Source of the DNA: Candidatus Daviesbacteria bacterium
GTDB taxonomy: Bacteria > Patescibacteriota > Microgenomatia > Daviesbacterales > UBA10151
Reading direction: 5' to 3'
DNA: 64,000 nucleotides
Assembly (NCBI GenBank): GCA_028687915.1
Contig: JAQTZF010000001.1
Span: 101,969 to 165,968 of the forward strand
Position 1 is the stretch's first letter. Each line of letters opens with the position of its first letter. The position numbers and the translations under genes were made by a program. The notes beneath the pieces are model-generated. The model saw only the letters and a program-made list of their open reading frames with translations, searched no databases and was not told where the DNA came from. Shown piece by piece: positions 6,768 to 50,859 of the stretch.

Positions 6768-6780
6768 TTATATAGATTTT

Positions 6781-7252: not shown

Positions 7253-7259
7253 TCATAAT

Positions 7260-29390: not shown

Positions 29391-31124
29391 TTATTTCTTC
29401 TCTACATTAAATAATGGACCAACAATAGAAATATTTGCCGGAGCTCTTAAATTAAAGAAATTCTTAAATTCGTTTCCTCCAAAAGATTGTGATCCACCAT
29501 CTCCTGATATAGAGACATTAGTGGTCATCCCTGAACCAAAATCAGCTGAAACAGAGACGCTTGAAATAGAATTAAATGGAGTAATGCTACGACTGCGTAG
29601 TTCCTGTTTAACCCTATCAGCATTCCATGTCTCCTGACCTGCTGGATTACCTTTATCCGGCTGGTAAAGATGCTCCTGAGTAGAAGAATCATTTCGGGAA
29701 AGTAACAGCACATTAACGATATCTGCTAGTTCATCAGATTTTAACCAGGCTGATTTACCATACTCTTTTCTGTATCCTTGTGCAGCATAAAGACAAGGAG
29801 AATCTTTATCATAAGATTTAGCCATTAAATCAGCAAAACTACTAACATCACCAGTAGTATCTCTCATTCTTTTAGTATAAGAAGTTCCCCCTCCCCAAAC
29901 ATCAGCTGAGGTAAAAGTATAACCTCCTGCAGTAGAAGCAAACCAACCTTTAATTGGCTGTCCCCCTGAACTCATAATTTTACCTTTTGTGGCTTCAACA
30001 GCTGCAATCCAGGCAGAGGAATTTAATTCTTTTTTAACAACCTGATCAGATTGACTTGGACGTACATAACCTTTTGATTTTTGGATTGCCAACCCATATG
30101 AACGTGCTGCAATAGCCTGCGCTTGTAATGCTGCAGCTGGCCAGCTAGTCGGCATTTCATAAAGGTGTTTTAAGTATTCATCTAAACTCATTGACTCATT
30201 ATTAAAAGTTTGACCAAATTCATTGGTACCATCTACTTTTATGGTTTCCCCTTCGTGACCACTGCTAAATTCAAAGTTTTGGAAATATGCCCGAAGTATA
30301 TCTTCAGCTGACTGACCGGCTTTAGCTCTGCCCAATGCACCATATTGATTCATTCCCACCCGGTGTGGAATACCAAAAGTAAAAAAAGCAAAAGCTGGTG
30401 AGAATCCAGGATTAATATTTCTATCATCAGTACAGATTAAGGGTCCAGCTCCCAAACTGGTAGGTAAATTTAAACTTCCTAACCTGGCATTAATAATTTC
30501 CTGTTGCTTGGCAGACAAACTAGCTATTTGTTTACTTAAAGTTGACTGATAATCCTTCGCCTTATTTACCTCTCCCCCAATAAAGGCTGCATTCTTATCA
30601 ACTTCAACTTGCATAGAAGCCAAACTTTTTTTATCTTTTTCAAGCTTGTCTTTTTGAGTAATTAAGTCCAGCATATCAGCTGTAACTTGAGAAATCACAC
30701 TTTGGTCCTCTTTGGTAGCTGCCTGGCGATAAGATAGCTCACGTAAAAGGTCTCCTGATCCAACACTGGAGAAAATTACAGTCAGGGGTGAAGCCATGTA
30801 AGAACGAATATAATAAGATCTGACTCTTTGCGAAAGCAATGATTGCTGAACAACTAATTTATCAGTCCTGATACTAATATCTTTTTCCTTCTGCTTAATA
30901 CTGTTTGATAAACTAACTAACTTATTTTGAATTTGAGCCAATTGAATTTTTAAAGCATTCAGTTGTCCTTCTAAAGGTTTGGTTGCTGCCACAGATTTTT
31001 CGCGGGCAGCAGATAATTCATTAATCTGTTTTTGTAAATCCTCCACTTCATCAGCACGAATAACAAAAGGCTGATAAATAAGAACTAACAATAATAAAGG
31101 AATAAGCAGAAAAACTTTTCTCAT
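29391..31124 (-). CDS. Secreted coiled-coil plus SpoIID/LytB-domain protein (cell-wall amidase enhancer-like).
   Basis: Signal peptide and a roughly 200-aa coiled-coil region with heptad-like periodicity. The downstream segment PHRVGMNQYGALGRAKAGQSAEDILRAYF matches the SpoIID signature msQyGA-gmA-G--y-eIL-hYY. Confidence 0.55.
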   Translation of the reverse strand: MRKVFLLIPLLLLVLIYQPFVIRADEVEDLQKQINELSAAREKSVAATKPLEGQLNALKIQLAQIQNKLVSLSNSIKQKEKDISIRTDKLVVQQSLLSQRVRSYYIRSYMASPLTVIFSSVGSGDLLRELSYRQAATKEDQSVISQVTADMLDLITQKDKLEKDKKSLASMQVEVDKNAAFIGGEVNKAKDYQSTLSKQIASLSAKQQEIINARLGSLNLPTSLGAGPLICTDDRNINPGFSPAFAFFTFGIPHRVGMNQYGALGRAKAGQSAEDILRAYFQNFEFSSGHEGETIKVDGTNEFGQTFNNESMSLDEYLKHLYEMPTSWPAAALQAQAIAARSYGLAIQKSKGYVRPSQSDQVVKKELNSSAWIAAVEATKGKIMSSGGQPIKGWFASTAGGYTFTSADVWGGGTSYTKRMRDTTGDVSSFADLMAKSYDKDSPCLYAAQGYRKEYGKSAWLKSDELADIVNVLLLSRNDSSTQEHLYQPDKGNPAGQETWNADRVKQELRSRSITPFNSISSVSVSADFGSGMTTNVSISGDGGSQSFGGNEFKNFFNLRAPANISIVGPLFNVEKK

Positions 31125-31224
31125 GGAATAATGTCATTATACCCTAAAAATAATGTACGTGTCTTTAAACTTTGAGCCTGCCGAAAGGTTGCAAACAAAT
31201 TTGGATTAAGATAATCTAGAAGCA

Positions 31225-31632
31225 ATGTCCATCTTTTTAAGAACTCTTTTATTAACATTATTTTTACTTATTTTTCTCTCTTCCTCTCGCTTAGCTCTCG
31301 CTGCTGATCCTCCCGGAGGCGCAGGTGAGGCTTGTCCTAATGGAGCCTCTGGTATTAACACTGCTCTTGGATGTGTACCTACTGAACCCTCCGCCTTTAT
31401 TCAGGCTGTATCCCGTTTGCTAAGTGGTATTGGAGGAGGGATTGCCCTTCTTCTTATGATTGCTGGATCTTTTAGAATGATTACCTCTGGTGGCAATCCT
31501 GATGGTGTAAAAGCTGGTTCTGAACAATTTACCTCTGCTTTGATTGGATTATTATTTATTATTTTTGCTGTGCTACTATTAAAAGTAATCGGGGTAGATA
31601 TTTTAAATATCCCAGGATTTGGATCTATTTAA
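31225..31632 (+). CDS. VirB2/TrbC-like pilin paralog 1 (signal peptide plus two TM helices).
   Basis: Cleavable signal peptide ...LALA|AD, a Cys pair, then TM-ITSGGNPDG-amphipathic-TM. This is the same architecture as the five downstream paralogs. Confidence 0.5.
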   Translation: MSIFLRTLLLTLFLLIFLSSSRLALAADPPGGAGEACPNGASGINTALGCVPTEPSAFIQAVSRLLSGIGGGIALLLMIAGSFRMITSGGNPDGVKAGSEQFTSALIGLLFIIFAVLLLKVIGVDILNIPGFGSI

Positions 31633-31635
31633 TAT

Positions 31636-32010
31636 ATGACTAAACTACTTGCACAAGGATTAACAATACCAGGTCTAACAGGAACACCAATCCCTATTCC
31701 AGGAGTTGGTGGTGAATCCACTGTACGAGACGCCACCATAGGAGGATTCCTCACTCCTCTACTTGATGTAGTTTTCTTAATTGCTTCTGTTTTAATGTTT
31801 GTTTGGATGGTTTGGGGCATTATGCAATATATTTTTGCGGGAGGGGAAAAAGAAAAACTCGCTAAAGCCAGGTCCAGAATCACCTGGGCGATTGTTGGTT
31901 TTTGTATTGTTTTACTTTCTTTTACTATTTCACAGTATGCTAAAGAAATTTTTCCACCCAATTCAGACCCAAACAGCGAACAAACTGTAACAACCGTTTC
32001 AACACCATAA
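31636..32010 (+). CDS. VirB2/TrbC-like pilin paralog 2.
   Basis: TM-FAGGEKEKLAKARSRITWAIVGF-TM, with the shared S/AGG(E/D)KEK motif. Confidence 0.5.
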   Translation: MTKLLAQGLTIPGLTGTPIPIPGVGGESTVRDATIGGFLTPLLDVVFLIASVLMFVWMVWGIMQYIFAGGEKEKLAKARSRITWAIVGFCIVLLSFTISQYAKEIFPPNSDPNSEQTVTTVSTP

Positions 32011-32011
32011 C

Positions 32012-32317
32012 ATGACACCAACACCTGTTAATTTAAAAAGTCAATTTGGATTCGGTTATTTTGAAAATTTAGGTCAGGGTTTTAGTCTTTTAGTGATGCC
32101 TATTTTTGAAATTGCTGGCGTGGCTGTTATTATTTACCTACTTATAGGAGGCATTAAATATATGACCTCAGCTGGAGATAAAAACGCGGTGGCTTCTGCC
32201 CAGCAAATGATTACCCATGCTATTATTGGATTTATATTATTGGTATTATTATTTGTAATAGTACAATTCGTACCAGAATTTTTTGGAGCTGGTGCATTAA
32301 AGATTATAGGAAGATGA
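32012..32317 (+). CDS. VirB2/TrbC-like pilin paralog 3.
   Basis: TM-TSAGDKNAVASAQQMITHAIIGF-TM. The stop/start sits tight against the neighbouring genes. Confidence 0.5.
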   Translation: MTPTPVNLKSQFGFGYFENLGQGFSLLVMPIFEIAGVAVIIYLLIGGIKYMTSAGDKNAVASAQQMITHAIIGFILLVLLFVIVQFVPEFFGAGALKIIGR

Positions 32318-32652
32318 ATCAATTACTAGCAGCAAACCCATCAAGCGTCATAGGAACCATTACCCCTCCTCCTGGTATTAAAGATTTGGTGGATAAAGGC
32401 GGCGCTGGTGGAATTAATTCTGTTTTAACAAGTAGTATTATTTTAATCTACCAAGTGGCAATTGTTTTATTTGTCTTCATGATTGTCTTTGGTGCTTTGC
32501 AATGGATTATCTCCGGAGGAGAAAAAGAAAAAATTGCTGCTGCTCAGGGAAGAATTACCAATGCTGTTATTGGTTTGGTTATTTTAGGACTAGCCTGGGT
32601 TATTGTCTCTGTTTTAGGTAATTTTACTGGAATTAAAGTTGGGGGTGTTTAA
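32314..32652 (+). CDS. VirB2/TrbC-like pilin paralog 4.
   Basis: QWIISGGEKEKIAAAQGRITNAVIGLVILGLAWVIVSV, nearly identical to paralog 5. Confidence 0.5.
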   Translation: MNQLLAANPSSVIGTITPPPGIKDLVDKGGAGGINSVLTSSIILIYQVAIVLFVFMIVFGALQWIISGGEKEKIAAAQGRITNAVIGLVILGLAWVIVSVLGNFTGIKVGGV

Positions 32653-32701
32653 AACCAACCCAAGACTTGACAAGGGTTTTATTGTATGCAAACATTAATT
32701 C

Positions 32702-33061
32702 ATGATCCAAGAAGTTTTAGCAGCTGTTAGCCCCACCCCGATAGTAGTTGATTTAGCCAATGTTGGTGTTGGTATTCCTGCAGATACAAGTGTGGGTCTT
32801 ATCATCGGAAATGCCATCAGAATTATTATGATGATTGCCTTAATTGGTGTTTTGGCAATGTTAATTTTTGGGGCTTTTCAATGGATTGTTTCCGGAGGAG
32901 AAAAAGAAAAAGTAGCTTCTGCCAGAGGACGAATTACCAATGCTTTAATTGGATTAGCTATTTTAGGATTAGCTTTTGTAATAGTAACTGTAGCTGGAAA
33001 CTTAGTTAATATAAATATCTTTGATATTAAAATTCCAAATCTTGCTAACCCAGCTCCTTAA
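32702..33061 (+). CDS. VirB2/TrbC-like pilin paralog 5.
   Basis: QWIVSGGEKEKVASARGRITNALIGLAILGLAFVIVTV. Confidence 0.5.
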   Translation: MIQEVLAAVSPTPIVVDLANVGVGIPADTSVGLIIGNAIRIIMMIALIGVLAMLIFGAFQWIVSGGEKEKVASARGRITNALIGLAILGLAFVIVTVAGNLVNINIFDIKIPNLANPAP

Positions 33062-33120
33062 TCAATTCTGGCTACCCCTCCTTGCTTGACCTGATTTCTT
33101 CTTTTTAGTACTGTTAATAT

Positions 33121-33480
33121 ATGAAAAAATTCCTAGTCTTAATTCTTAATTCTCTTTTCTTAATGATTTATACCCCGGTTTATGCTGATAATCCGGGACC
33201 TGCAGGACCCAAACAATTACAGGAACTTTTTATGCGAATTATTAACCTGGCTGCAGAGGCTGCTTTTGTTGTTTTACTTATCATGTTAGTTTACGCCGGC
33301 ATCAAATTTTTAACTTCTGGTGGGGACCCAAAAGCAATTGGAGCAGCTGGGGGCACCATCACCTGGGCATTGTTAGGAATATTATTTATGGCAATTGGCT
33401 GGTTACTGCTACTATTAATCAAAAATTTTACAGGAGTAGATGTAACACAATTTTGTATTGGTTTTAATGGTTGCCAGTAA
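33121..33480 (+). CDS. VirB2/TrbC-like pilin paralog 6 (with signal peptide).
   Basis: Signal peptide ...PVYA|DNPGPAGP, then TM-TSGGDPKAIGAAGGTITWALLGILF-TM. Confidence 0.5.
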   Translation: MKKFLVLILNSLFLMIYTPVYADNPGPAGPKQLQELFMRIINLAAEAAFVVLLIMLVYAGIKFLTSGGDPKAIGAAGGTITWALLGILFMAIGWLLLLLIKNFTGVDVTQFCIGFNGCQ

Positions 33481-33486
33481 TTATTC

Positions 33487-35532
33487 ATGAAATATCTGCC
33501 TTTGTTTACTCTTGGACTTTTAATAAGTTGTATCTTTCTCTTTTTTCCTGCAACAATCAAAGCTGCTTGTACTAGTGAGGGTCCTGCTTGTGTCTATCCC
33601 AAACAAGATGGAGGCACTTGCCAGGGAACTTGCTCCAAAACTCAAAATATTTTTGTTTGCAGCCCATCAGCACCTGATTGTTTTACTCCTTCTACACCCT
33701 CACCTTCCCCTGGTCAACCATCAATACCCCCTCCTTCCACACCAATATCAACAAGTATAATTATTGGTGCCCAGCTTCCAGGAGCTATAACCATCAACAG
33801 ATTAATTCCTTCCCAGTACAGTTTCCAATGGATTAAATTTCAATATTCCCTGGGAAGCAGCCAAGATCTGGAGGGTTTAATAAGAAGTGCAAGGAGTGCC
33901 AGTTCAGGTGGGGGCAGAACTTATCAGGTCTTAATTTCTGTTGCCAAAAATACAGCCGGTATTGAAACTTTAAAAAACCCAGATACTTATCCACCCGAAC
34001 AGGATCCTGATTATTTTACTCATCAGTATTGTCCCTATGATGAAGAGCTGGAAACTTATAATATCCCCTACAATTGCGGCACAGATCCTGTCAGTGGAGA
34101 ACCTCAAACTTGTTATGAACAACGCAGAGCTCAACCTAAAAGCGATAATGGTTATACAAAATTTAGAGATCAAATGGAAGCCCTTGCCCCAAGATTAAGT
34201 GGTGCCTCAGCTGTTGAAGTATGGAATGAACCAAACCTGGAAGATGAATGGACACGACAAGGACTGGGGCCGGTTAATCCTGAAAACTATGTTAATTTTA
34301 TGAATTGTGGGATTAAAGGGCTTAAAAAAGGCGGATATACAGGAAAGATTATTAGCGCTGGCTTAGCTCCAAATGCTTATGCCACAAGTACTGGTCAATC
34401 AAACATGAATGATTTAACTTTTTTTAATAGCTTTATTGATAAGGGAGGATTAAATAATATTGATGCAATCGGCTGGCATGCTAATATTACTTCTGAAATA
34501 GCACCAAGTGATAATCCAGGTGATAATGGATTTAAAAGAGTCCAACATGCCCTTGGAAAAGGTAAACCTGTATGGTTAACTGAATTTGGCTGGGATAGAA
34601 GTACTTTTAGAGGTGCGGATGATTACGAAAGACGCCAGCTGCAAGCCCAATATATTGCCCAGGCTTACGAGGTAGCAGATAGGTTAGGCGGCATCGGTGC
34701 AATGTTTGTCTGGAATTTCGGCTTTACTATTGATTCCCCGGGACAACCTGAATTTATTCCCTGGGATATAGAGGGTACAATCCCCCGGGGTCTACTTTGC
34801 CAGCCAAATCCATTACGAACAACTCGTCCAGACAGAGGAGACACCACTTATGTACACGATGAATCCATTGCTGATGATCCTGTACCAGCCAAGGTAGCCG
34901 GAGTTGCTTTATTACCAAGAATAATTATTGATGAAACAACTCAAAGCGCAGCACAGGTAAATGGAACTGATGTCCAGGTTACAAAAAGTTTCTTCAGCGA
35001 ACTTTTAAACTGGCTCTCTTTTATTCAAAATTTTGCTTGTTCTACACTGGGACGAGTTCTTGGTTTAAGAGATTTTTGTACCCCTAATTTATCAGTAGGA
35101 ACAACTGAATCAGGCACACGTCCTCCCGGAAAAAATACCCAACAATTTACACTTCAAACAAATAGTTTAAGTAAAGTCTCAATCCCACAGGGAATTACGC
35201 TTATTCCGGAAGATAAAGACTGTAATTTAGGGCAAATCAAAGAGGAAGGCGTAGATATTGGGAATCAAAAATTAAATGAACTAAGTGAAACCCTGGGAAC
35301 TACCACTGGTTTTTATGGAAACAATATGGTCGATTTTAAAACCACAAATAATCCTGATTGGGAAAGGTGTATGGTAGAACGAATGAAGACAGAGAATTTA
35401 AATATAGGTAATAAATTATTTGAACAAGATAGAAGATCAGCTGATTTATATTGTAGAAAACAAGTAATGTGTAAAGGCTTATATCCAAATGGTATATGCC
35501 CATTTGAACCTACCCCTACTCCTGCCAGATAA
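33487..35532 (+). CDS. Secreted clan GH-A glycoside hydrolase (GH5-like), with a Cys-rich N-terminal module and a Pro/Ser-rich linker.
   Basis: Signal peptide. VEVWNEPNLEDEW carries the NEP acid/base motif and VWLTEFGWD carries the TE(F)G nucleophile motif, spaced about 120 aa apart as in (beta/alpha)8 GH-A enzymes. The N-terminus has a six-Cys module followed by TPSTPSPSPGQPSIPPPSTP. Confidence 0.5.
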   Translation: MKYLPLFTLGLLISCIFLFFPATIKAACTSEGPACVYPKQDGGTCQGTCSKTQNIFVCSPSAPDCFTPSTPSPSPGQPSIPPPSTPISTSIIIGAQLPGAITINRLIPSQYSFQWIKFQYSLGSSQDLEGLIRSARSASSGGGRTYQVLISVAKNTAGIETLKNPDTYPPEQDPDYFTHQYCPYDEELETYNIPYNCGTDPVSGEPQTCYEQRRAQPKSDNGYTKFRDQMEALAPRLSGASAVEVWNEPNLEDEWTRQGLGPVNPENYVNFMNCGIKGLKKGGYTGKIISAGLAPNAYATSTGQSNMNDLTFFNSFIDKGGLNNIDAIGWHANITSEIAPSDNPGDNGFKRVQHALGKGKPVWLTEFGWDRSTFRGADDYERRQLQAQYIAQAYEVADRLGGIGAMFVWNFGFTIDSPGQPEFIPWDIEGTIPRGLLCQPNPLRTTRPDRGDTTYVHDESIADDPVPAKVAGVALLPRIIIDETTQSAAQVNGTDVQVTKSFFSELLNWLSFIQNFACSTLGRVLGLRDFCTPNLSVGTTESGTRPPGKNTQQFTLQTNSLSKVSIPQGITLIPEDKDCNLGQIKEEGVDIGNQKLNELSETLGTTTGFYGNNMVDFKTTNNPDWERCMVERMKTENLNIGNKLFEQDRRSADLYCRKQVMCKGLYPNGICPFEPTPTPAR

Positions 35533-35579
35533 TAATAGGTCTAGTTGCAAGAACCTTGCAAATTTTGTACTCTTAAACT

Positions 35580-37295
35580 ATGTCTGCCTTCCAAAAAGTC
35601 TTCTCCTTATTATTTATTTTATTTATAGCTAACTTATTTATTTTTATTTCTCCGGCTTCTGCAGAAAGCAGTCCATGTTTAGGAGATTGGTGCCCTTTAA
35701 GTACTGCCAACTATCAAGATGAAGTTGCTACTCAAAGATTTGGAAGAAATATTTTAGTTTTTGGACATGTTGCGCTATTTGGTACAAACCCATTAGGAGG
35801 ACAAACATACAGTGAAAAAGTTGCCTATAATACTGTAAACGGTAAAATCGTAGCCTCAGCAGTTCCTGGTATTGGCCCTGGAAACATTAATGATGGCGCA
35901 TTAGCCATGGCAGGTAAAACAATAGATTCTTTATATACTCCACCTACCTCCAGCATAGAATATCTGGCTAATATAGGAGAAAATATTGGTATTGCTCCAA
36001 AATCTGCATATGCTCAAGAGATTGGTGGTTCAGGTTATAACGTAATTAGACCAGTACTAAAGCTCTGGCAAGTCACCAGAAATATTGCTTATGTGGGTTT
36101 TATTTTAGTTTTTATGGCTGCTGGGTTGATGATTATGTTCAGACAAAAACTTAATCCTCAAACAGTTATTGGTATCCAACAAGCCTTACCTGGAATAGTG
36201 GTTGGATTAATATTAGTTACATTCAGTTATTTTATTGCGTCTTTAATTGTAGATCTTTCTTTCGTGGGTGCCAGGCTAGTTGCAGGACTCTTTATCAGCA
36301 CTGGTGAAGTAAATTTTTATGGGTGTAGTGTAGTCGCCCTTGACGGAAGTTGCTCTTCTGGAGATAACGAATCAGGACTAATAAACACTTATAATAAATC
36401 TGATGCTTTTGATATGTATGGGCGAGCAGGAACCAGAGTTAGTAATATTTCTGATGTTTTTGGACAAGTATGGGGAACTCTTAGTCCATCCGCACCAACA
36501 AGCCCATCTGGGGTAGATGGACTTTTAAAAAGGCTTCAGGATGCAGCTAATGGAGCCCGATCAGGAGTATTATTTGGACCAGGAGGTGCTTTAGTCGGTG
36601 CTTTTAGCGGCTTAATTAATTATAGTATTGGCCAAGCAGCAGCTGCTGGAGTAACTGCCACACTCGCATCACTATTAATTCCATTAATTCTTGGTATTGC
36701 CTTGATGATTCAATTTGTCAAACTAATACTTTCATTAGTTATGTCTTATCTGCAAATATTGTTGATGGTTATTTTTGGACCAATCTTAATTATGGTGTCT
36801 GCAGTTCCAGGCAGAGGTGGAGCTTTAAGTTATTGGTTAAAAGGGCTCTTTGCTAATGCTTTGGTGTTCCCTGCTGTTTTTGCTGGATTTTTGTTTGCAG
36901 GATTATTATTAAATTGGAATAGTGCCAACCTAAACCTGGCTAACATGCCTATGTTTGGCGGATTACATCCTGATATTTTAAAATCAGTTTTAGCTTTTGG
37001 CGTATTATTAGGATTACCTGCTATTCCTGATATGGTCAGAGATGCTTTTGGAGTAAAAGCACCACAAGGATTCATGAAAGCAGCTATAGGAGGATTTATG
37101 GGTGGAGTTGCTGCAGGCAAAGGTGGATATAACCAAGCCATGGAAAAAACAGGTATCAGATCAGAACAACAAGCAAAACAAAAACAAGATATCGAATCGA
37201 AGCAAGCAGGTTATGTACAGGGAGCACGTCCAGTTTGGGCTCGTCCAACCATAGGCGGTAGAATAAAGTCATTCTTAGTAGATAACGCTAAATAA
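35580..37295 (+). CDS. TrbL/VirB6-like polytopic T4SS inner-membrane protein.
   Basis: Signal peptide plus a roughly 150-aa periplasmic domain, then six or more TM helices (IAYVGFILVFMAAGLMIMF, GIVVGLILVTFSYFIASLIV and others), then a Gly-rich tail. This architecture and its position in a T4SS locus match VirB6/TrbL. Confidence 0.55.
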   Translation: MSAFQKVFSLLFILFIANLFIFISPASAESSPCLGDWCPLSTANYQDEVATQRFGRNILVFGHVALFGTNPLGGQTYSEKVAYNTVNGKIVASAVPGIGPGNINDGALAMAGKTIDSLYTPPTSSIEYLANIGENIGIAPKSAYAQEIGGSGYNVIRPVLKLWQVTRNIAYVGFILVFMAAGLMIMFRQKLNPQTVIGIQQALPGIVVGLILVTFSYFIASLIVDLSFVGARLVAGLFISTGEVNFYGCSVVALDGSCSSGDNESGLINTYNKSDAFDMYGRAGTRVSNISDVFGQVWGTLSPSAPTSPSGVDGLLKRLQDAANGARSGVLFGPGGALVGAFSGLINYSIGQAAAAGVTATLASLLIPLILGIALMIQFVKLILSLVMSYLQILLMVIFGPILIMVSAVPGRGGALSYWLKGLFANALVFPAVFAGFLFAGLLLNWNSANLNLANMPMFGGLHPDILKSVLAFGVLLGLPAIPDMVRDAFGVKAPQGFMKAAIGGFMGGVAAGKGGYNQAMEKTGIRSEQQAKQKQDIESKQAGYVQGARPVWARPTIGGRIKSFLVDNAK

Positions 37296-37320
37296 ACAGA
37301 TATTTTACGAGAGATAAACT

Positions 37321-39555
37321 TTAACCTTTTAATCCTTCTTCTAATGCCTTTTTTAAAGTTCCTGTTATAAACTCCCATATAAAGGATCCTGCAAACTTAA
37401 GATCTTTTCTGTGCTCAATCTTATTATTAACCATAATATCCACCACTCTTTGTACCTTTTTTGCTGTAAGATCATCAACAGCTACTTTAAAGTCCCCTGA
37501 TCCAGGAACAAGCTCTGGCCTCCCGGCTCTTATTTCTCTTTCTGCCTGTTCTGCGGCTCGCTGTTTTATCTTTAACTTCTCTTTACCAGAGAGTTTAATA
37601 TCAAAATAATCTGCCAGTACCATTTCTTTTTCCTGCATCTGAATAAATTGCGGAGCATTAGGATCAGTTAAACCAGTCAGTTTATTAACCCCTGCTAAGA
37701 TTTCATCTTCAGATAATCTTTGTTTGCCTGTCGATTCTATTTTCTGTCTAGCATATTTAATAAAGTTCATTAGTAAATGCTTTTTTGTTTCCCAAGATTC
37801 TGCTTTTGAATATTCAAAAGCATTTAAGAGTTTGCCCAATGTATCAAAATTTGGATTTAACAAAAAAGATTCAGCTGAACCGCAGAGTGCTTTTCTACCT
37901 TCCTCTGGTCCATCAACAAACCTTGAGGCCCAAAGACTCATAACTTGCGCCCCCATTGGAATAAAACTGAAATCATTACTCGAAACCACACCTTTTTCTA
38001 CTTTTCTCCTCAAAAGTCTGAAGTTAAGATGGCCCACTCTTTCACCACGATTGTTATCGTTAATCCTTAGGGCTTCATCGCTTTGTTCCTTGGGTCCACG
38101 ATCTTGATATAAGAACCTGCCCTTCTCGTCAATATAATCAGGCGTTGCATCAATTCCTGTTCTTTCTTTAAAAGACGAGTATTCTTTATAAGACAAAAAA
38201 TCAGCTGGAGCGTTTAATCTGACAGTTCTTGTCCAAAAATCACCCCCATAAATATCTACCCCCTCAAGAAGTTCAATTTGGCTTCTCAAAAGTCCGGCTT
38301 CAGCTCTAAGAAATTCCCTAAAACGCATAATTTTTGACATTGGGTAGTCACAACCATCTCTTCCTCCTGCCCAAGTCGGTTTTTCAGGACCATCATAATC
38401 AATCCCAACGGTTTTTTCATTAATTTTCCCCCTATTTACTATCAAATAGTCATACATGATTCCCCTACCAGTAAAGCGGAACATTCTTTCAGCCATGTTT
38501 GAAGCCCATTCATACTCATTTGCTTTATAACGGCTATCTACCAGCTCATCGTAATCTTCATGTCCTTTACTCTTTAAAAACTCCCGAAATACTTTGTCTT
38601 GTTCTTTCTCTGCATCCTCCTGATATTTTGAGAATTTTTGGGTTTCAGAAAGATTTTCAAACTTATCTTCCCTAGAACGATCTTCAGCTTTCTGTTTGTT
38701 TAAATAATCCTCATAATTTCCTACTACTACTGGTATTTCTGCAGGATCTATTTTTAGCTCTAAACAAGCCCTTTGAAGAGCCAAAAACTGTTGAACCTTC
38801 TTACCAAAACCACCTCTTCCTGCTTCTGAATTAGCCCTGGCGAACTCATGACCATGATCTTCATAGTATTGAAGAGCCTCAATAAAAGGATTAAATGTTT
38901 GAGGGGCCTCTCCTTCACCTCTCGCAACCTCTTCTTGCAGCGCGAATAAAACGTCGTACCAGTCCGGCGCTAAACTTAGAGCAGCTCCAGAAACATCTTT
39001 AATGCTTCCTTTATTCTCGTAAGCATTAAAGGCAGAATGAAAAGAAAGCCTGGCTTTAATTTCATTACGCATCCGGTGAGCCCAATCTTTTTGATCTTTA
39101 AACTGTTCGTCAGACAATTGTTCACCTGTAATTGGATCCTTATGTTTTATCTCTAAAGTTTCTAAGATTGCTTGTGCATTTTGAAGATCAATTTGTGTCT
39201 GTTGGGTTAAATCACTCTTGGAAATTTCTACTAATGCCAAAGTGTCTTTAATGTGTTTCTCTGCTTCTTCTCTTTTTTTTGGCCAAACAACTTCAATTGG
39301 ATATTGTTGAGGACCCATAATTTCAATCGCTGTCCAGCCCGGTGGTATATCCTGTCCTTGACGGGTAGTTTTCCGTCCTTCTATTTCTTCTCCCGCGTCT
39401 TCTCCTAATGCGGCATTAATTGCAGCAGCCGCTTCCGGACCATGTATTCTGGCTATTCTTGCTTTTTGCGCTTCAGTAAGAAGCTCTTTTTGATTTTCTC
39501 CACTGGCACCTGTTTCTGTTCCACCTGGTTCTGGCATATGTTTTTCTCTTTCCAT
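37321..39555 (-). CDS. Hypothetical large soluble protein, 744 aa, acidic, with no recognisable domain.
   Basis: Long ORF oriented against the surrounding T4SS genes. No TM helix and no motif identified. Confidence 0.5.
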   Translation of the reverse strand: MEREKHMPEPGGTETGASGENQKELLTEAQKARIARIHGPEAAAAINAALGEDAGEEIEGRKTTRQGQDIPPGWTAIEIMGPQQYPIEVVWPKKREEAEKHIKDTLALVEISKSDLTQQTQIDLQNAQAILETLEIKHKDPITGEQLSDEQFKDQKDWAHRMRNEIKARLSFHSAFNAYENKGSIKDVSGAALSLAPDWYDVLFALQEEVARGEGEAPQTFNPFIEALQYYEDHGHEFARANSEAGRGGFGKKVQQFLALQRACLELKIDPAEIPVVVGNYEDYLNKQKAEDRSREDKFENLSETQKFSKYQEDAEKEQDKVFREFLKSKGHEDYDELVDSRYKANEYEWASNMAERMFRFTGRGIMYDYLIVNRGKINEKTVGIDYDGPEKPTWAGGRDGCDYPMSKIMRFREFLRAEAGLLRSQIELLEGVDIYGGDFWTRTVRLNAPADFLSYKEYSSFKERTGIDATPDYIDEKGRFLYQDRGPKEQSDEALRINDNNRGERVGHLNFRLLRRKVEKGVVSSNDFSFIPMGAQVMSLWASRFVDGPEEGRKALCGSAESFLLNPNFDTLGKLLNAFEYSKAESWETKKHLLMNFIKYARQKIESTGKQRLSEDEILAGVNKLTGLTDPNAPQFIQMQEKEMVLADYFDIKLSGKEKLKIKQRAAEQAEREIRAGRPELVPGSGDFKVAVDDLTAKKVQRVVDIMVNNKIEHRKDLKFAGSFIWEFITGTLKKALEEGLKG

Positions 39556-39672
39556 AAACCCTCCTTTATTACTAAATTACAATCCAAACCTAAAATTGGC
39601 CTACATTATAATCTAAGGCTGAGCTTATATCAAACCCGATCTAATCGGGTTCAAATTTAGTATAGCACAGCT

Positions 39673-40899
39673 TTAATCACACTTCTCTGCAGCATCTTCT
39701 TTTTTAAGGCCACAATGCGGACATACTTCAATACCCTTGCCAGATGGAATATCTCCCTCACATCTGGGACATTTGAAAAAAGCTTCCTGAGCACCTGACC
39801 AGGTTGACATTTCTCCTCCAATTTTATTGCCTGAGAATCCACAGCTCCCACGAAGTCTTGGTGCCCCCATTGCAATTAAGCGCCTCTTCCTTTCTTCATA
39901 TGCTTCATCACCTACAGTTAATTCATTTGACTCAGTTATTTCTCCCCTAAGCAGAGCCAAAGCATAATTATCATGGGCAATCTTATTTCTTTCTGCTTCT
40001 TTAATATCCTGATTCTCTAAAGCATTTAAAACATCCCTTCTAAGGGGCTGTAGCTTATCTAAAAGCCAATGGCAACTATCTTGTTGTCTATTACTATGAT
40101 TTGGATCTAAGGCCTTTATTACGTCCATGTGAGAGTTAAACCTTTCCCCTCCTTTAAGCCAGACAGGTGTTTTTAACAAATCTACATCTGAAGAACTTTC
40201 GCTTAATTGATTTTCTATACTTAAAAACTGATTTAAAAAGTTTGTTGCTTCACTGGTAGTTAGGTGATTTCGGTATGCAATTGCATCTACCCTATCTTCT
40301 AACACCTGAAAAACAAAAGTAAAGTTGTGATCTTTAAACCCATCTTCTTTTTTTCCGGGTTCTGAATGCCAAACAGCAAAATCTCCTTTATCTATTACTC
40401 CAGCAAACAGGGGTTGCTCAATCTTTTCTTTAAAACCAATACACTCTGCTCTTGCTCTTATGCCTTGTCCTTTTTTAAAGCTTTCTAAGATATCTCCATC
40501 TTGTTCATACCCAATGGAGTAAATCTGATTTGGCAAACCATTTTCACCCCTTTTTAATCCATAACTATAGCGGGTGATATTTTCTTCAACAATGTATTCA
40601 CGGGTAAAATACTTGAGGTTTTCATCTACTCTGGTACGCCATGAGGCAATATTAGAACAATTTCGACGGGCGTAAATTTCGTCTTGAAGATTGAATGCTT
40701 GTTGTGTTTCTGTAGCCATATTTTTCCTGCTCGGGATCAAACTACGGTTATGGTTCCTGGCTTCCACAAGCAGTTCACATGCTTGTGGTTTACAGTTGCG
40801 GCACAGCTCTTGAATTTCACAAGATTCCCATTGTCGCCTACGGCGACCCGCCCCTATAAAATACATAAGTATGTTGTTTTTGTCAATTCCTATCAGCAA
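39673..40899 (-). CDS. Hypothetical protein with a C-terminal zinc-ribbon (CPRC...CPHC).
   Basis: 408-aa ORF co-oriented with and upstream of the 744-aa gene. The C-terminus reads FKCPRCEGDIPSGKGIEVCPHCGLKK. The true start may be the internal MATETQQAF. Confidence 0.4.
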   Translation of the reverse strand: MLIGIDKNNILMYFIGAGRRRRQWESCEIQELCRNCKPQACELLVEARNHNRSLIPSRKNMATETQQAFNLQDEIYARRNCSNIASWRTRVDENLKYFTREYIVEENITRYSYGLKRGENGLPNQIYSIGYEQDGDILESFKKGQGIRARAECIGFKEKIEQPLFAGVIDKGDFAVWHSEPGKKEDGFKDHNFTFVFQVLEDRVDAIAYRNHLTTSEATNFLNQFLSIENQLSESSSDVDLLKTPVWLKGGERFNSHMDVIKALDPNHSNRQQDSCHWLLDKLQPLRRDVLNALENQDIKEAERNKIAHDNYALALLRGEITESNELTVGDEAYEERKRRLIAMGAPRLRGSCGFSGNKIGGEMSTWSGAQEAFFKCPRCEGDIPSGKGIEVCPHCGLKKEDAAEKCD

Positions 40900-40983
40900 A
40901 GTACTAGATACATTAAGAAGAAACCAAATTGATCTCTTTTGAGATGCTTGCGAGTAAAGTTTTCACGGGTTATACCTATAACT

Positions 40984-42141
40984 ATGGAACCACACCCTAT
41001 CCCACAAAATGTTACATCTTTTGAATTCCACTTAGTTGGAGACATGACTCTTAAGCAGTTTGCCTATCTTGGTGCAGGCCTGGGAATGGCTTATTTATTA
41101 TATGCCACCATGTTCTTTTCTCTGCCAATTGTGGCTATCCCTTTAATTTTGGTATCTACTATATTAGGCGTGGCATTTGCTTTTGTTCCTATCTACGACC
41201 GGCCATTTGATCATTGGGTCTCAGCCTTTTTTAAAGCAGTTTATTCTCCAACTAAAGCTTCTTTTAAAATAAAATATGACCCTAAACTAAAAGTTGAACC
41301 AAACGATCCTTTCTTAAAGGATAGATTACAATTATACCTTTCAACTATGGGAATGACTGTTAATTTATGGGATAAAGCAGCAACTACTCAACCAAGAACA
41401 ACTCAAACACAATCAACCCCAACAGCCTTACAAGAAAAAGAAGTTGCTCTGGCAGAAAATTTAATTAGTAAAACTATGGATAATATTCAGACACAGACAC
41501 AACCATCAGCCTCAGAAAAATTACCAAGTCAGCAGGAATTAACTAATTTAGTAGAAATGGCAAAACAAGCACAATTATTACAGGGAAAAATTTCAGATAC
41601 AGAAAATTTAATCAAACAAATGACAAGCAGCACCAAGCAAGCAGAAGCATCACAAGTTCAATCTAGTTTAAAAGCCTTGATTCAGCAAACAGAAGAATTG
41701 TATAAAAAAACATCTACTATGAATCAAGCAACTCCTCATACAGCTCAACCTCAAACAGCAGCCATACCACAAGTACCAAGCATTCAGGCTGTTACTCAAC
41801 CAGTTGCCCCTCCAAAAGTAACTGTGGTACAACCACTGGCCCACAAAGAAACACAGGTGGTCTTAACCACCACCCCAAATATCATTAATGGAATGGTAAG
41901 TGACGAAGCTGGAAATTTCATAGAAAATGTCATTGTTATTATTCACGATAAAGAAGGTATTCCTGTTCGAGCATTAAAGACGAATAAGTTAGGTCAATTT
42001 GCCGGAGCAACTCCATTACCCCTGGGTGTCTACACCATTACTTTGGAGAAAGATAATTTTACCTTCCAAACCCTACAACTCACACTGGATAATTCAGTCT
42101 TAGGACCACTGCAAATCATCGCCAAAAAGGGAGGGCAATAG
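40984..42141 (+). CDS. PrgI-family (VirB3-like) T4SS membrane protein fused to a long Q/T-rich linker and a C-terminal carboxypeptidase-regulatory-like beta-sandwich.
   Basis: N-terminus FEFHLVGDMTLKQFAYLGAGLGMAYLLYATMFF...VAFAFVPIYDRPFDHW matches the PrgI family pattern. C-terminus IINGMVSDEAGNFIENVIVIIHDKEGIPVRALKTNKLGQFAGATPLPLGVYTITLEKDNF matches the CarboxypepD_reg pattern (GxVxDxxGxPIxxAxVxL...TDxxGxFxxxxLxxGxYTL). Start taken at MEPHPIP. Confidence 0.55.
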   Translation: MEPHPIPQNVTSFEFHLVGDMTLKQFAYLGAGLGMAYLLYATMFFSLPIVAIPLILVSTILGVAFAFVPIYDRPFDHWVSAFFKAVYSPTKASFKIKYDPKLKVEPNDPFLKDRLQLYLSTMGMTVNLWDKAATTQPRTTQTQSTPTALQEKEVALAENLISKTMDNIQTQTQPSASEKLPSQQELTNLVEMAKQAQLLQGKISDTENLIKQMTSSTKQAEASQVQSSLKALIQQTEELYKKTSTMNQATPHTAQPQTAAIPQVPSIQAVTQPVAPPKVTVVQPLAHKETQVVLTTTPNIINGMVSDEAGNFIENVIVIIHDKEGIPVRALKTNKLGQFAGATPLPLGVYTITLEKDNFTFQTLQLTLDNSVLGPLQIIAKKGGQ

Positions 42142-42143
42142 AA

Positions 42144-43043
42144 TTGACCACCAGCCAACAATTTATTCCTATTCAGGATGTTAATAAGGATTTAGTTTTT
42201 CAAAAAGATGGCAGTGTCGGCATTATTATCTCTGTTTCAGCAGTTAACTTTGCCCTGCTGTTTGAAACAGAACAAATATCTATCATTGATTCTTTTGCCG
42301 GGCTTTTAAATTCTTTATCTTTTCCTATCCAAATAGTTATCTATTCTAAAATCATGGATGTGTCATCTTATTTACACACTATTGATAATGCTTTAGCAAA
42401 ACAAACCAATCCTAACTTAAAAAAGATGACTTTAAGCTATCGCGGGTTTGTGGAAAAAAGCATTAAAGATAATAACGTGCTGGATAAAAAGTTTTATGTT
42501 TGTATTAAATTAACCTCTCTTGAGTTAGGTTTATTACCTTCTAACATGGAAGAAAAAACTAAAAAGGTGGCAACATTGCTTGAACCACGAAGAGATCATT
42601 TAATCAGGCAATTAGAGCGTTTAGGATTAAAAGCCAAACAACTATCTACAGAGGAGATTATTAAACTCTTTTATGAAATATATAATCCACCCATTACTGC
42701 TTCTGTTGCCCTGCCTGTACAAAGCAATATTAAATCTAGCCCCTTACTGGAAATTAATAAACCAGAAGTAATTCCTCAAACCCCTAAAGTAGAGGATAAT
42801 TTACCACCAAAACTGCGACCAATTAGAGCTAATTTGACTCAGCAAGTATCAACAACAGTAGTTCCACCTGCTCCTACTCCTGCACAAGCACCAATTACAC
42901 CACCAGTCATTCCAAAACCACCCACTCCGGTTGCTGCTCCTTTAACTAACCTATCTCCTATCACAGCAGCTAATTTAACATCTAATGCTTCTACTTTTAC
43001 ATCTCCTTTTGTGGTTGAAGAACTACCTGATGACGGACCCTAA
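42144..43043 (+). CDS. T4SS protein resembling the N-terminal domain of VirB4/CagE/TrbE, possibly the detached N-terminal part of a split VirB4, with a Pro/Thr-rich C-terminal tail.
   Basis: FIPIQDVNKDLVFQKDGSVGIIISVSAVNFALLFETEQISIIDSFAGLLNSLSFPIQIV follows the VirB4 N-terminal domain pattern (F-p--i-dg-i--kdGs-g-vl-v---n--l-s--E---l---f---Ln-L--piQi). The last 80 aa are low-complexity P/T/A. Confidence 0.4.
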   Translation: MTTSQQFIPIQDVNKDLVFQKDGSVGIIISVSAVNFALLFETEQISIIDSFAGLLNSLSFPIQIVIYSKIMDVSSYLHTIDNALAKQTNPNLKKMTLSYRGFVEKSIKDNNVLDKKFYVCIKLTSLELGLLPSNMEEKTKKVATLLEPRRDHLIRQLERLGLKAKQLSTEEIIKLFYEIYNPPITASVALPVQSNIKSSPLLEINKPEVIPQTPKVEDNLPPKLRPIRANLTQQVSTTVVPPAPTPAQAPITPPVIPKPPTPVAAPLTNLSPITAANLTSNASTFTSPFVVEELPDDGP

Positions 43044-44790
43044 ACAAAAACAATTAACTTTTGAAGATGCGGTTGCCCCCTATGAAGTAGAGGTTGATTT
43101 TTCGTTCCTAAAAATTAACCACCGCTATTTCCGTTCCTTTTTTGTATCTTCTTATCCGCGCTATGTTGAACCAAATTGGCTGGAGCCATTAATTTCATTT
43201 GAGCACTCAATGGTTTTATCAATGTTTATCTACCCTACCAGTTCAGCTGGCATTTTGGATGATTTAAAAAGAAAGATTGCTGAAATGGAAGCCACTATTC
43301 AAACTGATCAGGAAAGGGGGAGAATTGTTAATCCTACGGTTACAGTAGCTTTGGATGATGCCAAAGCATTACAGGAGCAACTTGCCAAAGGATCGGAAAG
43401 ATTTTTCCAGTTTAGTTTATATATTAATGTGCCCTCAGACTCTATTGAAGAATTAAATAATAAGTCACAGCTGGTTCAATCTACACTAGGCAGTATTTCT
43501 ATTGATTCTCATCCACTTTATTTACAAATGAAAGAAGGGTTTGAAAGCACACTGCCAATTGGACAAGATCCTTTATATCTTGCCCACAATATGGACACTA
43601 CCTCACTTGCCACCACATTTCCTTTTGTTTCCTCAGAGCTAACCTCACCAGATGGAGTTATTTATGGCATTAATGCCCATAACGATTCTTTAATTATTTT
43701 TGATAGGTTTAGCCAGGAAAACGCAAATTCTGTAGTTTTTGCAACAGCCGGTGCCGGTAAATCATATTTTGTAAAATTAGAATCTCTCCGTTCTTTAATG
43801 TTGGGCACAGAAGTAATTATTATTGACCCGGAAAAAGAATATGTAGATTTAGCCAAAGCTGTAGGGGGAGATTATATAAATTTTTCCACCACTTCACCTG
43901 TAAAGATTAATCCTTTTGACTTACCAGATATTTTAAATAGCGAAGAAGATGAATTAGGAAGAAAGATTTTATCTTTAACTGGATTTTTACGCTTGGTTTT
44001 AGGAGACCTCACTGCCAACGAAGTAGCAGTTTTAGATAGAGCCTTAAATGCCACTTATAAGTTAAAGGGGATTACAGCAAATGTTTTTAATAAAACAGAT
44101 CCTGCCAGTAAAATAAAAGTTGAGTCCCCGTTGATGGAAGATTTATATAAAGTGCTTATTGGCATGGAGGACAGCCTGGCGGGAAGCCTAGCTATAAGAT
44201 TGGAAAGGTTTATCAAAGGTTCTTTGGCTGGTATTTTTTCTGCTCAATCAAATATTAATATTCAAAACCCTTTTACTGTCTTTTCTGTTCGTGAATTACC
44301 AGACCAGTTAAGACCATTAGCTATGTATTTAATCCTTGATTATATTTGGACAAAAATCCGCAGAGAAATTAAAAAAAGGATTTTAGTGGTGGATGAGGCT
44401 TGGTATATGATGAAATACCCTGATTCTGCTTCTTTTTTAGTAGAAATGGTTAAAAGATCTAGGAAATATTACCTTGGAGTAACCACTATTAGCCAGGATG
44501 TAGAGGATTTCCTAGGACAAGACCGGGGCAAAGAAATCATTTCCAACTCAGCAATGCAGATATTATTAAAACAAGCACCTGTGTCTATTGAAAAAATAGG
44601 CGCTGTTTTTAATTTATCTCAGGGTGAAAAAAGACTGCTAACCACGGCTGGAGTAGGACAGGGGTTGTTTTTTGCTGGAAATGTACACATTGCCATGTCT
44701 ATTGTCGCCTCAGAAGAGGAGCATATCTTAATCACAACAAACCCCCGAGAAATATTGGAACGCCAGGAAAAAGAAAAAGGAGTTAGCTAA
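43030..44790 (+). CDS. virB4: VirB4-family T4SS ATPase (TraC/TrbE/PrgJ-like).
   Basis: N-terminal INHRYFRSFFVSSYPRYVEPNWLEPL, the classic VirB4 segment; Walker A ATAGAGKSYFVK; Walker B ILVVDEAW; C-terminal NPFDLP and TISQDVEDF motifs. Start taken at MTDPKQ (ATG 43030), overlapping the previous ORF by 14 nt. Confidence 0.8.
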   Translation: MTDPKQKQLTFEDAVAPYEVEVDFSFLKINHRYFRSFFVSSYPRYVEPNWLEPLISFEHSMVLSMFIYPTSSAGILDDLKRKIAEMEATIQTDQERGRIVNPTVTVALDDAKALQEQLAKGSERFFQFSLYINVPSDSIEELNNKSQLVQSTLGSISIDSHPLYLQMKEGFESTLPIGQDPLYLAHNMDTTSLATTFPFVSSELTSPDGVIYGINAHNDSLIIFDRFSQENANSVVFATAGAGKSYFVKLESLRSLMLGTEVIIIDPEKEYVDLAKAVGGDYINFSTTSPVKINPFDLPDILNSEEDELGRKILSLTGFLRLVLGDLTANEVAVLDRALNATYKLKGITANVFNKTDPASKIKVESPLMEDLYKVLIGMEDSLAGSLAIRLERFIKGSLAGIFSAQSNINIQNPFTVFSVRELPDQLRPLAMYLILDYIWTKIRREIKKRILVVDEAWYMMKYPDSASFLVEMVKRSRKYYLGVTTISQDVEDFLGQDRGKEIISNSAMQILLKQAPVSIEKIGAVFNLSQGEKRLLTTAGVGQGLFFAGNVHIAMSIVASEEEHILITTNPREILERQEKEKGVS

Positions 44791-46514: not shown

Positions 46515-46515
46515 A

Positions 46516-47019
46516 ATGAACAAAAAAGTACTAATTATACTACTACCTTTTGTGGTTGTTATTATTGGATTGGCTGCTTTATTGCTTTTCCCAAAAAAAT
46601 CTCAGATTACCCCAACTGTAATTTCTAGCCTTACTCCAACCCCTACCCAAACTGCGATTTTAAAACCATTAGTTGTAAAACCACCTACAGACCAAGAACT
46701 AGGACTAGTCTCTGTTGTTCCATCACCTGATCCTACCGGACAAAACAAAATTTCCCCAATCGAACGAATTACTTTTACTTTTAATAAAAGCGTTGACCCT
46801 ACTACTTTGGAATTTAATTCACAACCTGAAGTGGAACTAGAAAAGTATTTTTCCGAGAATAATACCAAACTATTGATTCAACCTCAGGGATTGGCTTTTT
46901 GGAAACCAAACACTGATTATGTTTTAACTATTAGAAAACAACTGAGGTCAAAGGATGGATTTAGCCTAAAAGAAGACATTATGTATAATCTAAAAGCAAT
47001 TACTCAAGGAGGAGAATAA
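46516..47019 (+). CDS. Membrane-anchored bacterial Ig-like (Big_5/SbsA-like) domain protein.
   Basis: N-terminal TM helix, then LVSVVPSPDPTGQNKISPIERITFTFNKSVDPTTLEF...TDYVLTI, the Ig-like pattern (v-s-sPadga--v----i-ltFsepvd---l). Start at ATG 46516, 1 nt after the upstream stop. Confidence 0.45.
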   Translation: MNKKVLIILLPFVVVIIGLAALLLFPKKSQITPTVISSLTPTPTQTAILKPLVVKPPTDQELGLVSVVPSPDPTGQNKISPIERITFTFNKSVDPTTLEFNSQPEVELEKYFSENNTKLLIQPQGLAFWKPNTDYVLTIRKQLRSKDGFSLKEDIMYNLKAITQGGE

Positions 47020-47020
47020 A

Positions 47021-48570: not shown

Positions 48571-48577
48571 ATACTAA

Positions 48578-49030: not shown

Positions 49031-49089
49031 AATTTATACCAAATCTTTTGGTTCAAACTATTTAACGAGTCCTTTATGGTGGACGAGTT

Positions 49090-50700: not shown

Positions 50701-50859
50701 AAGGTGTAAAGGGTAGGTTGAGGCAAGACCCAAACTTGATGGGGCTATCATAATGAAAAAGTTATCCACAGAAAAGATACCTAAACAGTGACGCACTATA
50801 TCAACTTTGTTTTCATTTAAAAATTGAAATTTATGAAATTAAATGTCATTATTTATTAA
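50701..50859. promoter_or_regulatory. dnaA upstream region with a perfect DnaA box and an AT-rich putative DNA-unwinding element.
   Basis: TTATCCACA at 50762-50770, followed by about 60 nt of more than 85% A+T (catttaaaaattgaaatttatgaaattaaatgtcattatttattaaatgaatatttt). Confidence 0.45.

Follow-up and report, generated by a model that had tools for sequence, protein, structure and literature searches.

In a stretch of 64,000 nucleotides from Candidatus Daviesbacteria (Microgenomatia, Patescibacteria/Candidate Phyla Radiation (CPR); assembly GCA_028687915.1, contig JAQTZF010000001.1, positions 101,969 to 165,968), hereafter called the window, six consecutive genes at positions 31225-33480 probably encode differentiated VirB2-like pilin subunits (Pfam family PF18895) of a chromosomal monoderm-type type IV secretion system (T4SS). 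The locus that contains them is a monoderm-type (MPF_FATA-like) chromosomal, origin-proximal T4SS. The array fits every element of the description published for multi-pilin arrays between 2023 and 2025, and it is therefore a further example of the kind already described and not a new kind of system. A preliminary description of the window, prepared from the sequence alone, had taken the six genes for an array of VirB2-like pilins; its interpretation is partly supported by the results given below, and it had missed that the multi-pilin phenomenon is already in the literature.

The array is made up of six adjacent open reading frames (ORFs) on the + strand, of 135, 124, 101, 112, 119 and 119 aa, exactly where the preliminary description had placed six ORFs of 101-135 aa. 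The intergenic gaps are, in order, 3, 1, -4, 49 and 59 nt, the start of paralog 4 overlapping the stop of paralog 3 (ATGA). Each of the six proteins independently exceeds the gathering score of PF18895 (T4SS_pilin, "Type IV secretion system pilin"), with 30.1-40.9 bits against a curated threshold of 26.6 bits (Table 1), from which we conclude that the array is real and not a chance arrangement. The 108 array members collected from 18 genomes all match the same family (108/108), here with E ≤ 0.01 as the criterion and not the gathering threshold. Paralog 4 is identical to protein PHQ59_00745 (NCBI) of a Candidatus Daviesbacteria metagenome-assembled genome (MAG), and a relative 75% identical to it carries the NCBI name "pilin." A tblastn search with paralog 4 against plasmid and phage collections gave no match. 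Nor are these pilins with a type IV pilus leader (class III, prepilin peptidase site G↓F/M-x-x-x-E), since none of the six sequences gives an N_methyl Pfam match or contains the motif. In a promoter and terminator scan of positions 30900-37400 the counts did not exceed those in shuffled sequence, and we therefore make no statement on transcription units.

A hydropathy scan (19-residue) reveals two strong hydrophobic segments in all six proteins. A clear third segment at the N-terminus, resembling a signal peptide, is confined to paralogs 1 and 6, in which putative cleavage sites, read from the sequence by eye, follow it (LALA↓AD and VYA↓DN, respectively). The N-terminal segment of paralog 5 is only at the threshold (1.61 against a cut-off of 1.6) and has no basic N-region; by hydropathy, paralogs 2, 3, 4 and 5 have no signal peptide. 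The AlphaFold2 model of paralog 4, built from a 19-sequence alignment, is a helical hairpin consisting of a helix at residues 29-66, a turn at 67-70 (S67-G-G-E70) and a second helix at 71-105, with a mean predicted local distance difference test (pLDDT) value of 77.9 and values of 88-94 per ten-residue block over the helix core (residues 41-100). The approximately 70-residue core of PF18895, in which a short turn connects two hydrophobic helices, is thus present both in this model and in the two hydropathy peaks of every paralog; all six paralogs are helical hairpins whose turn has the conserved sequence [ST][GA]G. The second glycine of the S-G-G turn is invariant in the six and at least 90% conserved among the 108 array members. 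The two helices with their short loop, the inter-helix motifs and the signal-peptide-like N-termini of paralogs 1 and 6 had all been noted in the preliminary description and are confirmed here; it had also named the outcome that would speak against pilins, no pilin-family homology together with the wrong topology, and what we found instead is a PF18895 match above the gathering score and two transmembrane segments in every one of the six.

The turns themselves differ from one paralog to the next. Paralog 1, with the loop TSGGNPDG (net charge -1), possesses a cysteine pair (Cys37/Cys50) immediately N-terminal of helix 1, and paralog 6, with TSGGDPK (net 0), has another (Cys112/Cys118) at its C-terminus. 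The loop of paralog 2 is basic (FAGGEKEKLAKARSR, net +3), and those of paralogs 3, 4 and 5 are TSAGDKNAVASAQQ (net 0), ISGGEKEKIAAAQGR (net +1) and VSGGEKEKVASARGR (net +2). VirB2-like proteins have been defined, under the label (S)OMIMO, as small proteins with two helices and a short loop in which the signal peptide is optional (bioRxiv 10.64898/2025.12.18.695078). The six proteins show this small outside-transmembrane-inside-transmembrane-outside architecture with a short, charged cytoplasmic loop, an orientation deduced from three features: classes 1 and 6 have signal peptides, class-1 orthologs carry a secreted ectodomain, and the loops are basic in classes 2, 4 and 5 (paralogs 1 to 6 representing classes 1 to 6, as discussed below).

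The neighborhood is that of a T4SS. A VirB4-type ATPase is encoded 9.5 kb downstream of the array, preceded by a TrsD/TraD-like gene, a PrgI-family (VirB3-like) gene and a gene for a polytopic membrane protein of 571 aa which, judged by its fold only, is probably the VirB6-like assembly platform. The window is chromosomal, carrying the genes for SmpB, DnaG, RpoD, FtsJ, LeuRS, TsaD and YidC. The dnaN and dnaA genes are located at 47470-50796, about 14 kb from the array and about 3 kb from the end of the T4SS locus (29391-44790), and the cumulative GC skew has its minimum at 48-50 kb.

Arrays of this type have been documented in other Patescibacteria. Six essential pilins were reported for Southlakia epibionticum ML1 (Wang et al. 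2023, PMC10633639); the T4SS pilin series is essential for epibiotic growth, and a coupling protein or relaxase is not recognizable there. A 2025 review refers to them as six structurally conserved, sequence-divergent VirB2-like pilins (PMC12857230). Using PF18895 and other profiles, Quinonero-Coronel et al. (2025, PMC12102498) surveyed 3,035 Patescibacteria genomes, an array being defined as at least two pilin genes that are in tandem or have a single non-pilin gene between them. They report 441 arrays, each with 2-11 pilin genes, which are commonest in Microgenomatia and Saccharimonadia; identity within an array averages 25% and reaches at most 54%, and the T4SS is noted to lie near dnaA. 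The window has six contiguous pilin genes near virB4, PrgI and TrsD genes, and the pairwise local identity between its paralogs (19-46%) is within the published divergence. It shares with the arrays of both papers PF18895, tandem divergent hairpin pilins, a chromosomal monoderm-type T4SS near dnaA, and the PrgI/VirB3, TrsD and VirB4 components, and there is no essential difference; a relaxase or coupling protein was not detected in the window either, among the 40 larger ORFs scanned. What goes beyond the published passages searched is the existence of position-specific classes in a conserved order, the large ectodomain of class 1 and the purifying selection on all classes.

The same six-gene array is found in the same neighborhood in other Microgenomatia genomes. 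Each paralog is most similar to its positional counterpart in other genomes, with 70-84% identity in the related locus L001 and 56-72% in L003; for paralog 1 the values are 73% and 72%, the L003 ortholog being the C-terminal module of a 590-aa protein, and the L001 ortholog of paralog 3 is 84% identical. This is decisive for paralogs 4 and 5, adjacent genes which the preliminary description had considered near-identical in their core and recently duplicated, and which might on that account be largely redundant copies. The near-identity is confined to the 26-residue cores, where 21 residues are the same; over 98 alignable residues the two proteins are only 46% identical, and their best DNA match, which is also the best internal DNA repeat of the array, is 78% identical over 134 nt only. 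Paralog 4 and paralog 5 have separate orthologs in L001 (75% and 76%) and in L003 (57% and 60%), so that the split between them predates the divergence of the species, and in most Daviesbacteria-like arrays class 4 can be distinguished from class 5. A recent duplication with redundant products is therefore very improbable.

A genome scan, limited to one genome per species and with the class 4/5 alignment as query, returned 79 loci from Daviesbacteria, Woesebacteria, Levybacteria, Gottesmanbacteria, Shapirobacteria, Pacebacteria and others. Pilin genes were counted with the non-iterated pilin hidden Markov model (HMM) alone, because the iterated HMM drifted onto the 571-aa proteins. Among the 65 complete arrays, the window's own included, six genes are present in 30 and eight in 16, the others having 1 to 11; nine of the 65 have fewer than six. 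The gene order of the window, 1-2-3-4-5-6, is found again in 19 related loci that are not duplicates. Class-specific HMMs built on 18 arrays were applied to 39 independent complete arrays with at least five genes: class 1 is first in 25 of these, class 6 is last in 32 (with 5 more ambiguous), and class 5 is usually penultimate. The extra genes of larger arrays are mostly of class 5 or class 4, and class 5 is multiplied, with 2-6 copies, in L010, L023, L028, L031, L036, L039 and L050. Arrays of 9-11 pilin genes, in which the extras are almost all of class 5/4, were observed at L039:2946-8385, L028:8133-12976, L036:7858-13658 and L041:4505-10625; there are up to six class-5 genes in L039, and L041 carries three consecutive ectodomain-bearing class-1 genes.

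The classes can also be told apart by their loops. The signatures are TSAGNP(D/E) for class 1, YIFAGG.KE.LAKARSRI for class 2 (conserved across the 18 genomes), (Q)WI.SGGDKEAV.KAR.R for class 4/5 and K(Y/F)LTSGG(E/D)(P/Q)KA for class 6; the class-6 orthologs have a hydrophobic N-terminus in 18 of 18 cases and two cysteines in 15 of 18. Class 1 is further distinguished by its size. In related loci the class-1 pilin usually constitutes the C-terminal ~100 residues of a secreted Cys-rich protein of 275-966 aa, and a Cys-rich N-terminal region of 278-516 aa was found in 14 of 18 class-1 proteins; the 135-aa paralog 1 of the window is a short form which has kept only the Cys37/Cys50 pair. Large class-1 proteins are encoded at L003:7511-9310 and by the first array gene in L008, L009, L011, L012, L013, L014, L016, L018, L021, L022, L024, L027 and L029. 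When paralog 1 was compared with 1.84 billion representative sequences, 7,996 matches were obtained at E ≤ 1e-3; among the best 150 of these, 148 are 173-763 aa long, and in nearly all the match lies at or near the C-terminal end. The class-1 ectodomains are mostly without Pfam matches.

Within classes, pairwise identity is highest in the loop (62-88%), lower in the helices (42-69%) and lowest in the N- and C-terminal tails (28-59%), as would be predicted for a loop that faces a lumen and for termini that are exposed. When the window is compared with L001, the ratio of nonsynonymous to synonymous substitution (dN/dS) is 0.05-0.14 in the six pilins, as against 0.03-0.17 in neighboring genes, values which are only approximate because synonymous sites are saturated (proportion of synonymous differences, pS, 0.57-0.74). 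By this approximate measure all six paralogs are under purifying selection. Between arrays from different samples, the differences amount to 0 of 2,193 nt and 1 of 1,860 nt.

These results bear on the proposal that the paralogs are alternative major pilins, one or a few of which are used at a time for host-range or antigenic variation. Quinonero-Coronel et al. (PMC12102498) suggest it, pointing to the VirB2 paralogs of Bartonella and Anaplasma as an analogy, and the preliminary description had raised it as well. The low identity of the paralogs (19-46%, like the published mean of 25% and maximum of 54%) is what such variants would show, and so is the low conservation of the exposed tails (28-59%); dN is, however, far below dS for all six paralogs, arrays from different samples are virtually identical, and there is no signature of repeats or gene conversion, the best internal repeat being the 78% match over 134 nt. 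Copy number does vary from 2 to 11 across lineages, with the extras at class 4/5 positions, but loss of a class is rare (9 of 65 complete arrays have fewer than six genes), and same-position orthologs, each class with its own loop signature, are stable in many genomes. The classes differ, moreover, in traits that do not belong to the surface, namely the signal peptide, the loop charge (-1 to +3) and the cysteine pairs. We therefore regard host-range or antigenic variation as unlikely, and non-redundant roles as more likely than alternative antigenic variants; the conserved order, the class-specific loops and the low dN speak against this part of the preliminary description.

A mechanism may be proposed for the differentiated pilin subunits. 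Each protein would enter the cytoplasmic membrane as a helical hairpin with the N- and C-termini outward and the charged [ST]GG(E/D)K loop in the cytoplasm, classes 1 and 6 via Sec with cleavage of the signal peptide and classes 2-5 without one. The TrsD/VirB4 ATPase would then pull the hairpins out of the membrane and stack them on the 571-aa VirB6-like platform, and the resulting tube would cross the envelope toward the host cell, its lumen lined by the loops and the variable termini exposed. Class 1 might be a surface or tip subunit, because a large secreted ectodomain is attached to it in most relatives; the bulk of the tube might consist of the classes with a basic loop (2, 4 and 5), and class 6 would be the constant member at the end of the array. 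As the six classes are kept in a fixed order, the subunits are probably non-redundant, co-assembling or acting at different positions. A mixed (heteropolymeric) filament is plausible. The more specific model, an ancient, ordered and non-redundant set which co-assembles into one heteromeric T4SS tube, with class 1 at the surface or tip displaying a variable ectodomain, classes 2, 4 and 5 in the shaft and class 6 constant at the end of the array, perhaps nucleated on the pilin-like hairpin within the VirB6-like platform protein, is offered tentatively; if true, this would be the first heteropolymeric VirB2-type pilus.

Outside Patescibacteria, the pilins can be compared with proteins of monoderm conjugation systems. 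NCBIfam family NF045849 (Mbov_0395 family pilin-like conjugal transfer protein) is matched by 86 of the 108 array members at E ≤ 0.01, with a best value of 1.6e-9; the scores of paralogs 1 and 6, 16 and 17 bits, are below the curated cutoff of 40 bits, which points, at the level of sequence profiles, to distant relatedness and not to membership. In the Mycoplasma integrative and conjugative element (ICE) the corresponding module, Mbov_0395/0396/0397 (NF045849/NF045889/NF045975), has the same order of pilin-like protein, polytopic membrane protein and VirB4, and the 571-aa and TrsD-like proteins of the window match the neighboring Mbov_0396 and Mbov_0397 models. All these matches are below the curated cutoffs, and the window proteins are therefore not members of these families; the Mycoplasma module, furthermore, belongs to a mobile element, and its description does not mention a multi-gene array.

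[quoted passage not shown] It is a single 75-aa gene, in contrast to the six conserved classes of the window, and pCF10 is conjugative, with a relaxase and VirD4, neither of which was found among the 40 larger window ORFs scanned. For a Gram-positive T4SS, modeling and probing of the PrgF hairpin indicate a pilus-like tube that is built on VirB6; where inspected plasmids had several candidates, one only was modeled as a pilus (bioRxiv 10.64898/2025.12.18.695078). With the TrbC/VirB2 pilins of Gram-negative bacteria (PF04956) the window pilins share the hairpin of two hydrophobic helices, the charged cytoplasmic/lumenal loop and the linkage to a T4SS, and in some host-associated bacteria (Bartonella, Anaplasma) TrbC/VirB2 paralogs have also multiplied. 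They are unlike TrbC/VirB2 in having no PF04956 match, in the absence of a signal peptide from four of six, in the monoderm host and in their ancient ordered paralogs. The preliminary description is thus upheld on VirB2-like pilins as regards family (PF18895), hairpin architecture and T4SS locus, and not as regards direct homology to TrbC/VirB2. As a lead only, these comparisons hint at a grouping of the CPR pilins with hairpin proteins from the conjugation systems of monoderms; if true, they are related to proteins of the Mycoplasma ICE and PrgF type and were not borrowed from diderm systems.

Could these proteins form no filament at all? They might be two-pass membrane proteins serving as accessory or channel parts of the T4SS, or in an unrelated role, the Pfam name "pilin" being a misnomer. 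No significant sequence match to solved pilins was obtained (a PDB sequence-profile search with the pilin profile found nothing relevant), fold comparison gave no clear match to them, and the six do not match PF04956; relatives nevertheless show consistent sub-threshold NF045849 matches, in 86 of 108, and weak TrbC/VirB2 (PF04956) matches in 5 of 108 (best E 6e-5), and architecture and topology are the same as in VirB2-like proteins. A similar hairpin does occur inside the polytopic 571-aa membrane protein, and reviews call a pilus of PF18895 proteins, which are without an experimental filament, an "intriguing possibility" only. The linkage to the VirB6-like, VirB3 and VirB4 genes is, on the other hand, tight and conserved, and the large secreted ectodomain on the outward N-terminus of class 1 best suits a surface-displayed subunit. 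Such a non-filament role appears improbable, somewhat more so than antigenic variation.

Several points weigh against differentiated pilins in a T4SS filament, or against their assembly into a single tube. PF04956 has no match at E ≤ 1 in the six paralogs, and hhalign places the pilin profile in register with pCF10 PrgF at a non-significant E of 0.24. We know of no organism in which a filament of PF18895 proteins has been observed, the term "pilin" being based on architecture, context and family name. The extra copies at class 4/5 positions indicate some turnover, and the saturation of synonymous sites applies to the selection estimates. That several classes occupy one filament is something we infer, and the conserved order would equally fit alternative filaments at different stages of the life cycle. 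No relaxase or coupling-protein Pfam domain was detected in the 40 larger window ORFs, a scan that did not extend to small ORFs or to the rest of the genome; as none was detected, the cargo is likely protein or other molecules exchanged with the host rather than conjugative DNA.

The T4SS is a leading candidate for the structure that physically connects these ultrasmall bacteria to their hosts; in a Saccharibacterium, the only member of the Patescibacteria tested for this, epibiotic growth requires the T4SS and its pilin series (PMC10633639). Our comparison argues that the pilin copies are fixed, differentiated parts and not variable spares, which sharpens the question of why there are so many of them. 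The conserved gene order with its classes, the fusion of ectodomains to class 1 and the pilin-like platform hairpin described below are incremental observations, which make the question of pilin number experimentally addressable in cultivable Saccharibacteria.

Table 1. Genes of the pilin array and of the surrounding T4SS locus (window positions).
Feature	Position	Strand	Length (aa)	Evidence or remark
SpoIID-domain protein, secreted, N-terminal coiled coil	29391..31124	-		PF08486 44 bits; divergently transcribed
Pilin paralog 1 (class 1)	31225..31632	+	135	PF18895 36.5 bits
Pilin paralog 2 (class 2)	31636..32010	+	124	PF18895 40.0 bits
Pilin paralog 3 (class 3)	32012..32317	+	101	PF18895 30.3 bits
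Pilin paralog 4 (class 4)	32314..32652	+	112	PF18895 40.9 bits
Pilin paralog 5 (class 5)	32702..33061	+	119	PF18895 32.0 bits
Pilin paralog 6 (class 6)	33121..33480	+	119	PF18895 30.1 bits
Secreted Cys-rich protein (19 Cys)	33487..35532	+	681	6 nt 3' of array
Polytopic membrane protein	35580..37295	+	571	47 nt after 681-aa gene
Minus-strand protein	37321..39555	-	744	
Minus-strand protein	39673..40899	-	408	
PrgI-family (VirB3-like) protein with C-terminal CarboxypepD_reg domain	40939..42141	+	400	PF12666 32.8 bits (cutoff 27)
TrsD/TraD-like protein	42144..43043	+	299	NCBIfam NF041427 TrsD E 6.7e-8; VirB4 N-terminal region models
VirB4-type T4SS ATPase	42985..44790	+	601	PF19044 TraG P-loop 86.7 bits; PF12846 AAA_10 46.2 bits

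The SpoIID-domain gene lies directly upstream of the array also in L001, L002 and L003, and its product is a candidate cell-wall remodeling partner that might have a VirB1-like role. The 681-aa protein downstream of the array has one N-terminal hydrophobic segment and a weak, sub-threshold match to PF11790 (Glyco_hydro_cc, E 0.0096), which makes it a possible, putative glycoside hydrolase; it is a conserved neighbor, with a syntenic 701-aa gene in L001 whose product is 58% identical. The PrgI-family gene is syntenic in L001/L002. All NCBIfam matches of the TrsD/TraD-like protein are below the curated cutoffs, and its Pfam TraC_F_IV match is weak; we take this protein to correspond to the N-terminal part of VirB4, encoded separately as is usual for T4SSs of monoderms. 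Two minus-strand genes, for proteins of 744 and 408 aa, lie between the VirB6-like and PrgI-like genes. Neither protein has a Pfam or NCBIfam match; syntenic counterparts (657 and 343 aa) are present in L001/L002, and the two may be uncharacterized T4SS components.

The first transmembrane (TM) hairpin of the 571-aa protein (TM-FRQKLNPQT-TM; residues ~152-228, window positions 36033-36263) is similar to the pilin domain. When 78 orthologs of this protein were scored with an HMM derived only from 531 array pilin domains, the median was 12.1 and the maximum 22.7 bits, with shuffled sequences at ≤5.2 and reversed sequences at ≤6.5 bits; in the twelve orthologs inspected the match is in the same N-terminal region (residues ~105-300), and one ortholog (P0110) carries a precomputed PF04956 TrbC match. 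The hairpin may be a pilin-like module within the assembly platform. A PDB sequence-profile search with the profile of the 571-aa protein found nothing relevant, and its hhalign comparison with pCF10 PrgH was non-significant (E 0.24).

Just 3' of the T4SS genes, at 46417-47473, are two adjacent small proteins with Ig-like Big_5 domains. The "Pam" pili of CPR described in a 2026 preprint are a different, Ig-fold donor-strand system; they have no bearing on the six pilin genes. In L003, toxin-antitoxin or defense-type genes (AbiEii, DUF433/DUF5615, PIN/PhdYeFM) are situated at 4987-7386 between the SpoIID-like gene and the array, and a Fic-domain gene follows downstream. Many public MAG records that contain such arrays are titled "uncultured Gammaproteobacteria bacterium," Pseudomonadales or Alphaproteobacteria (L006, L008, L009, L014, L018, L022, L025, L027, L028 and many others), titles which look wrong.

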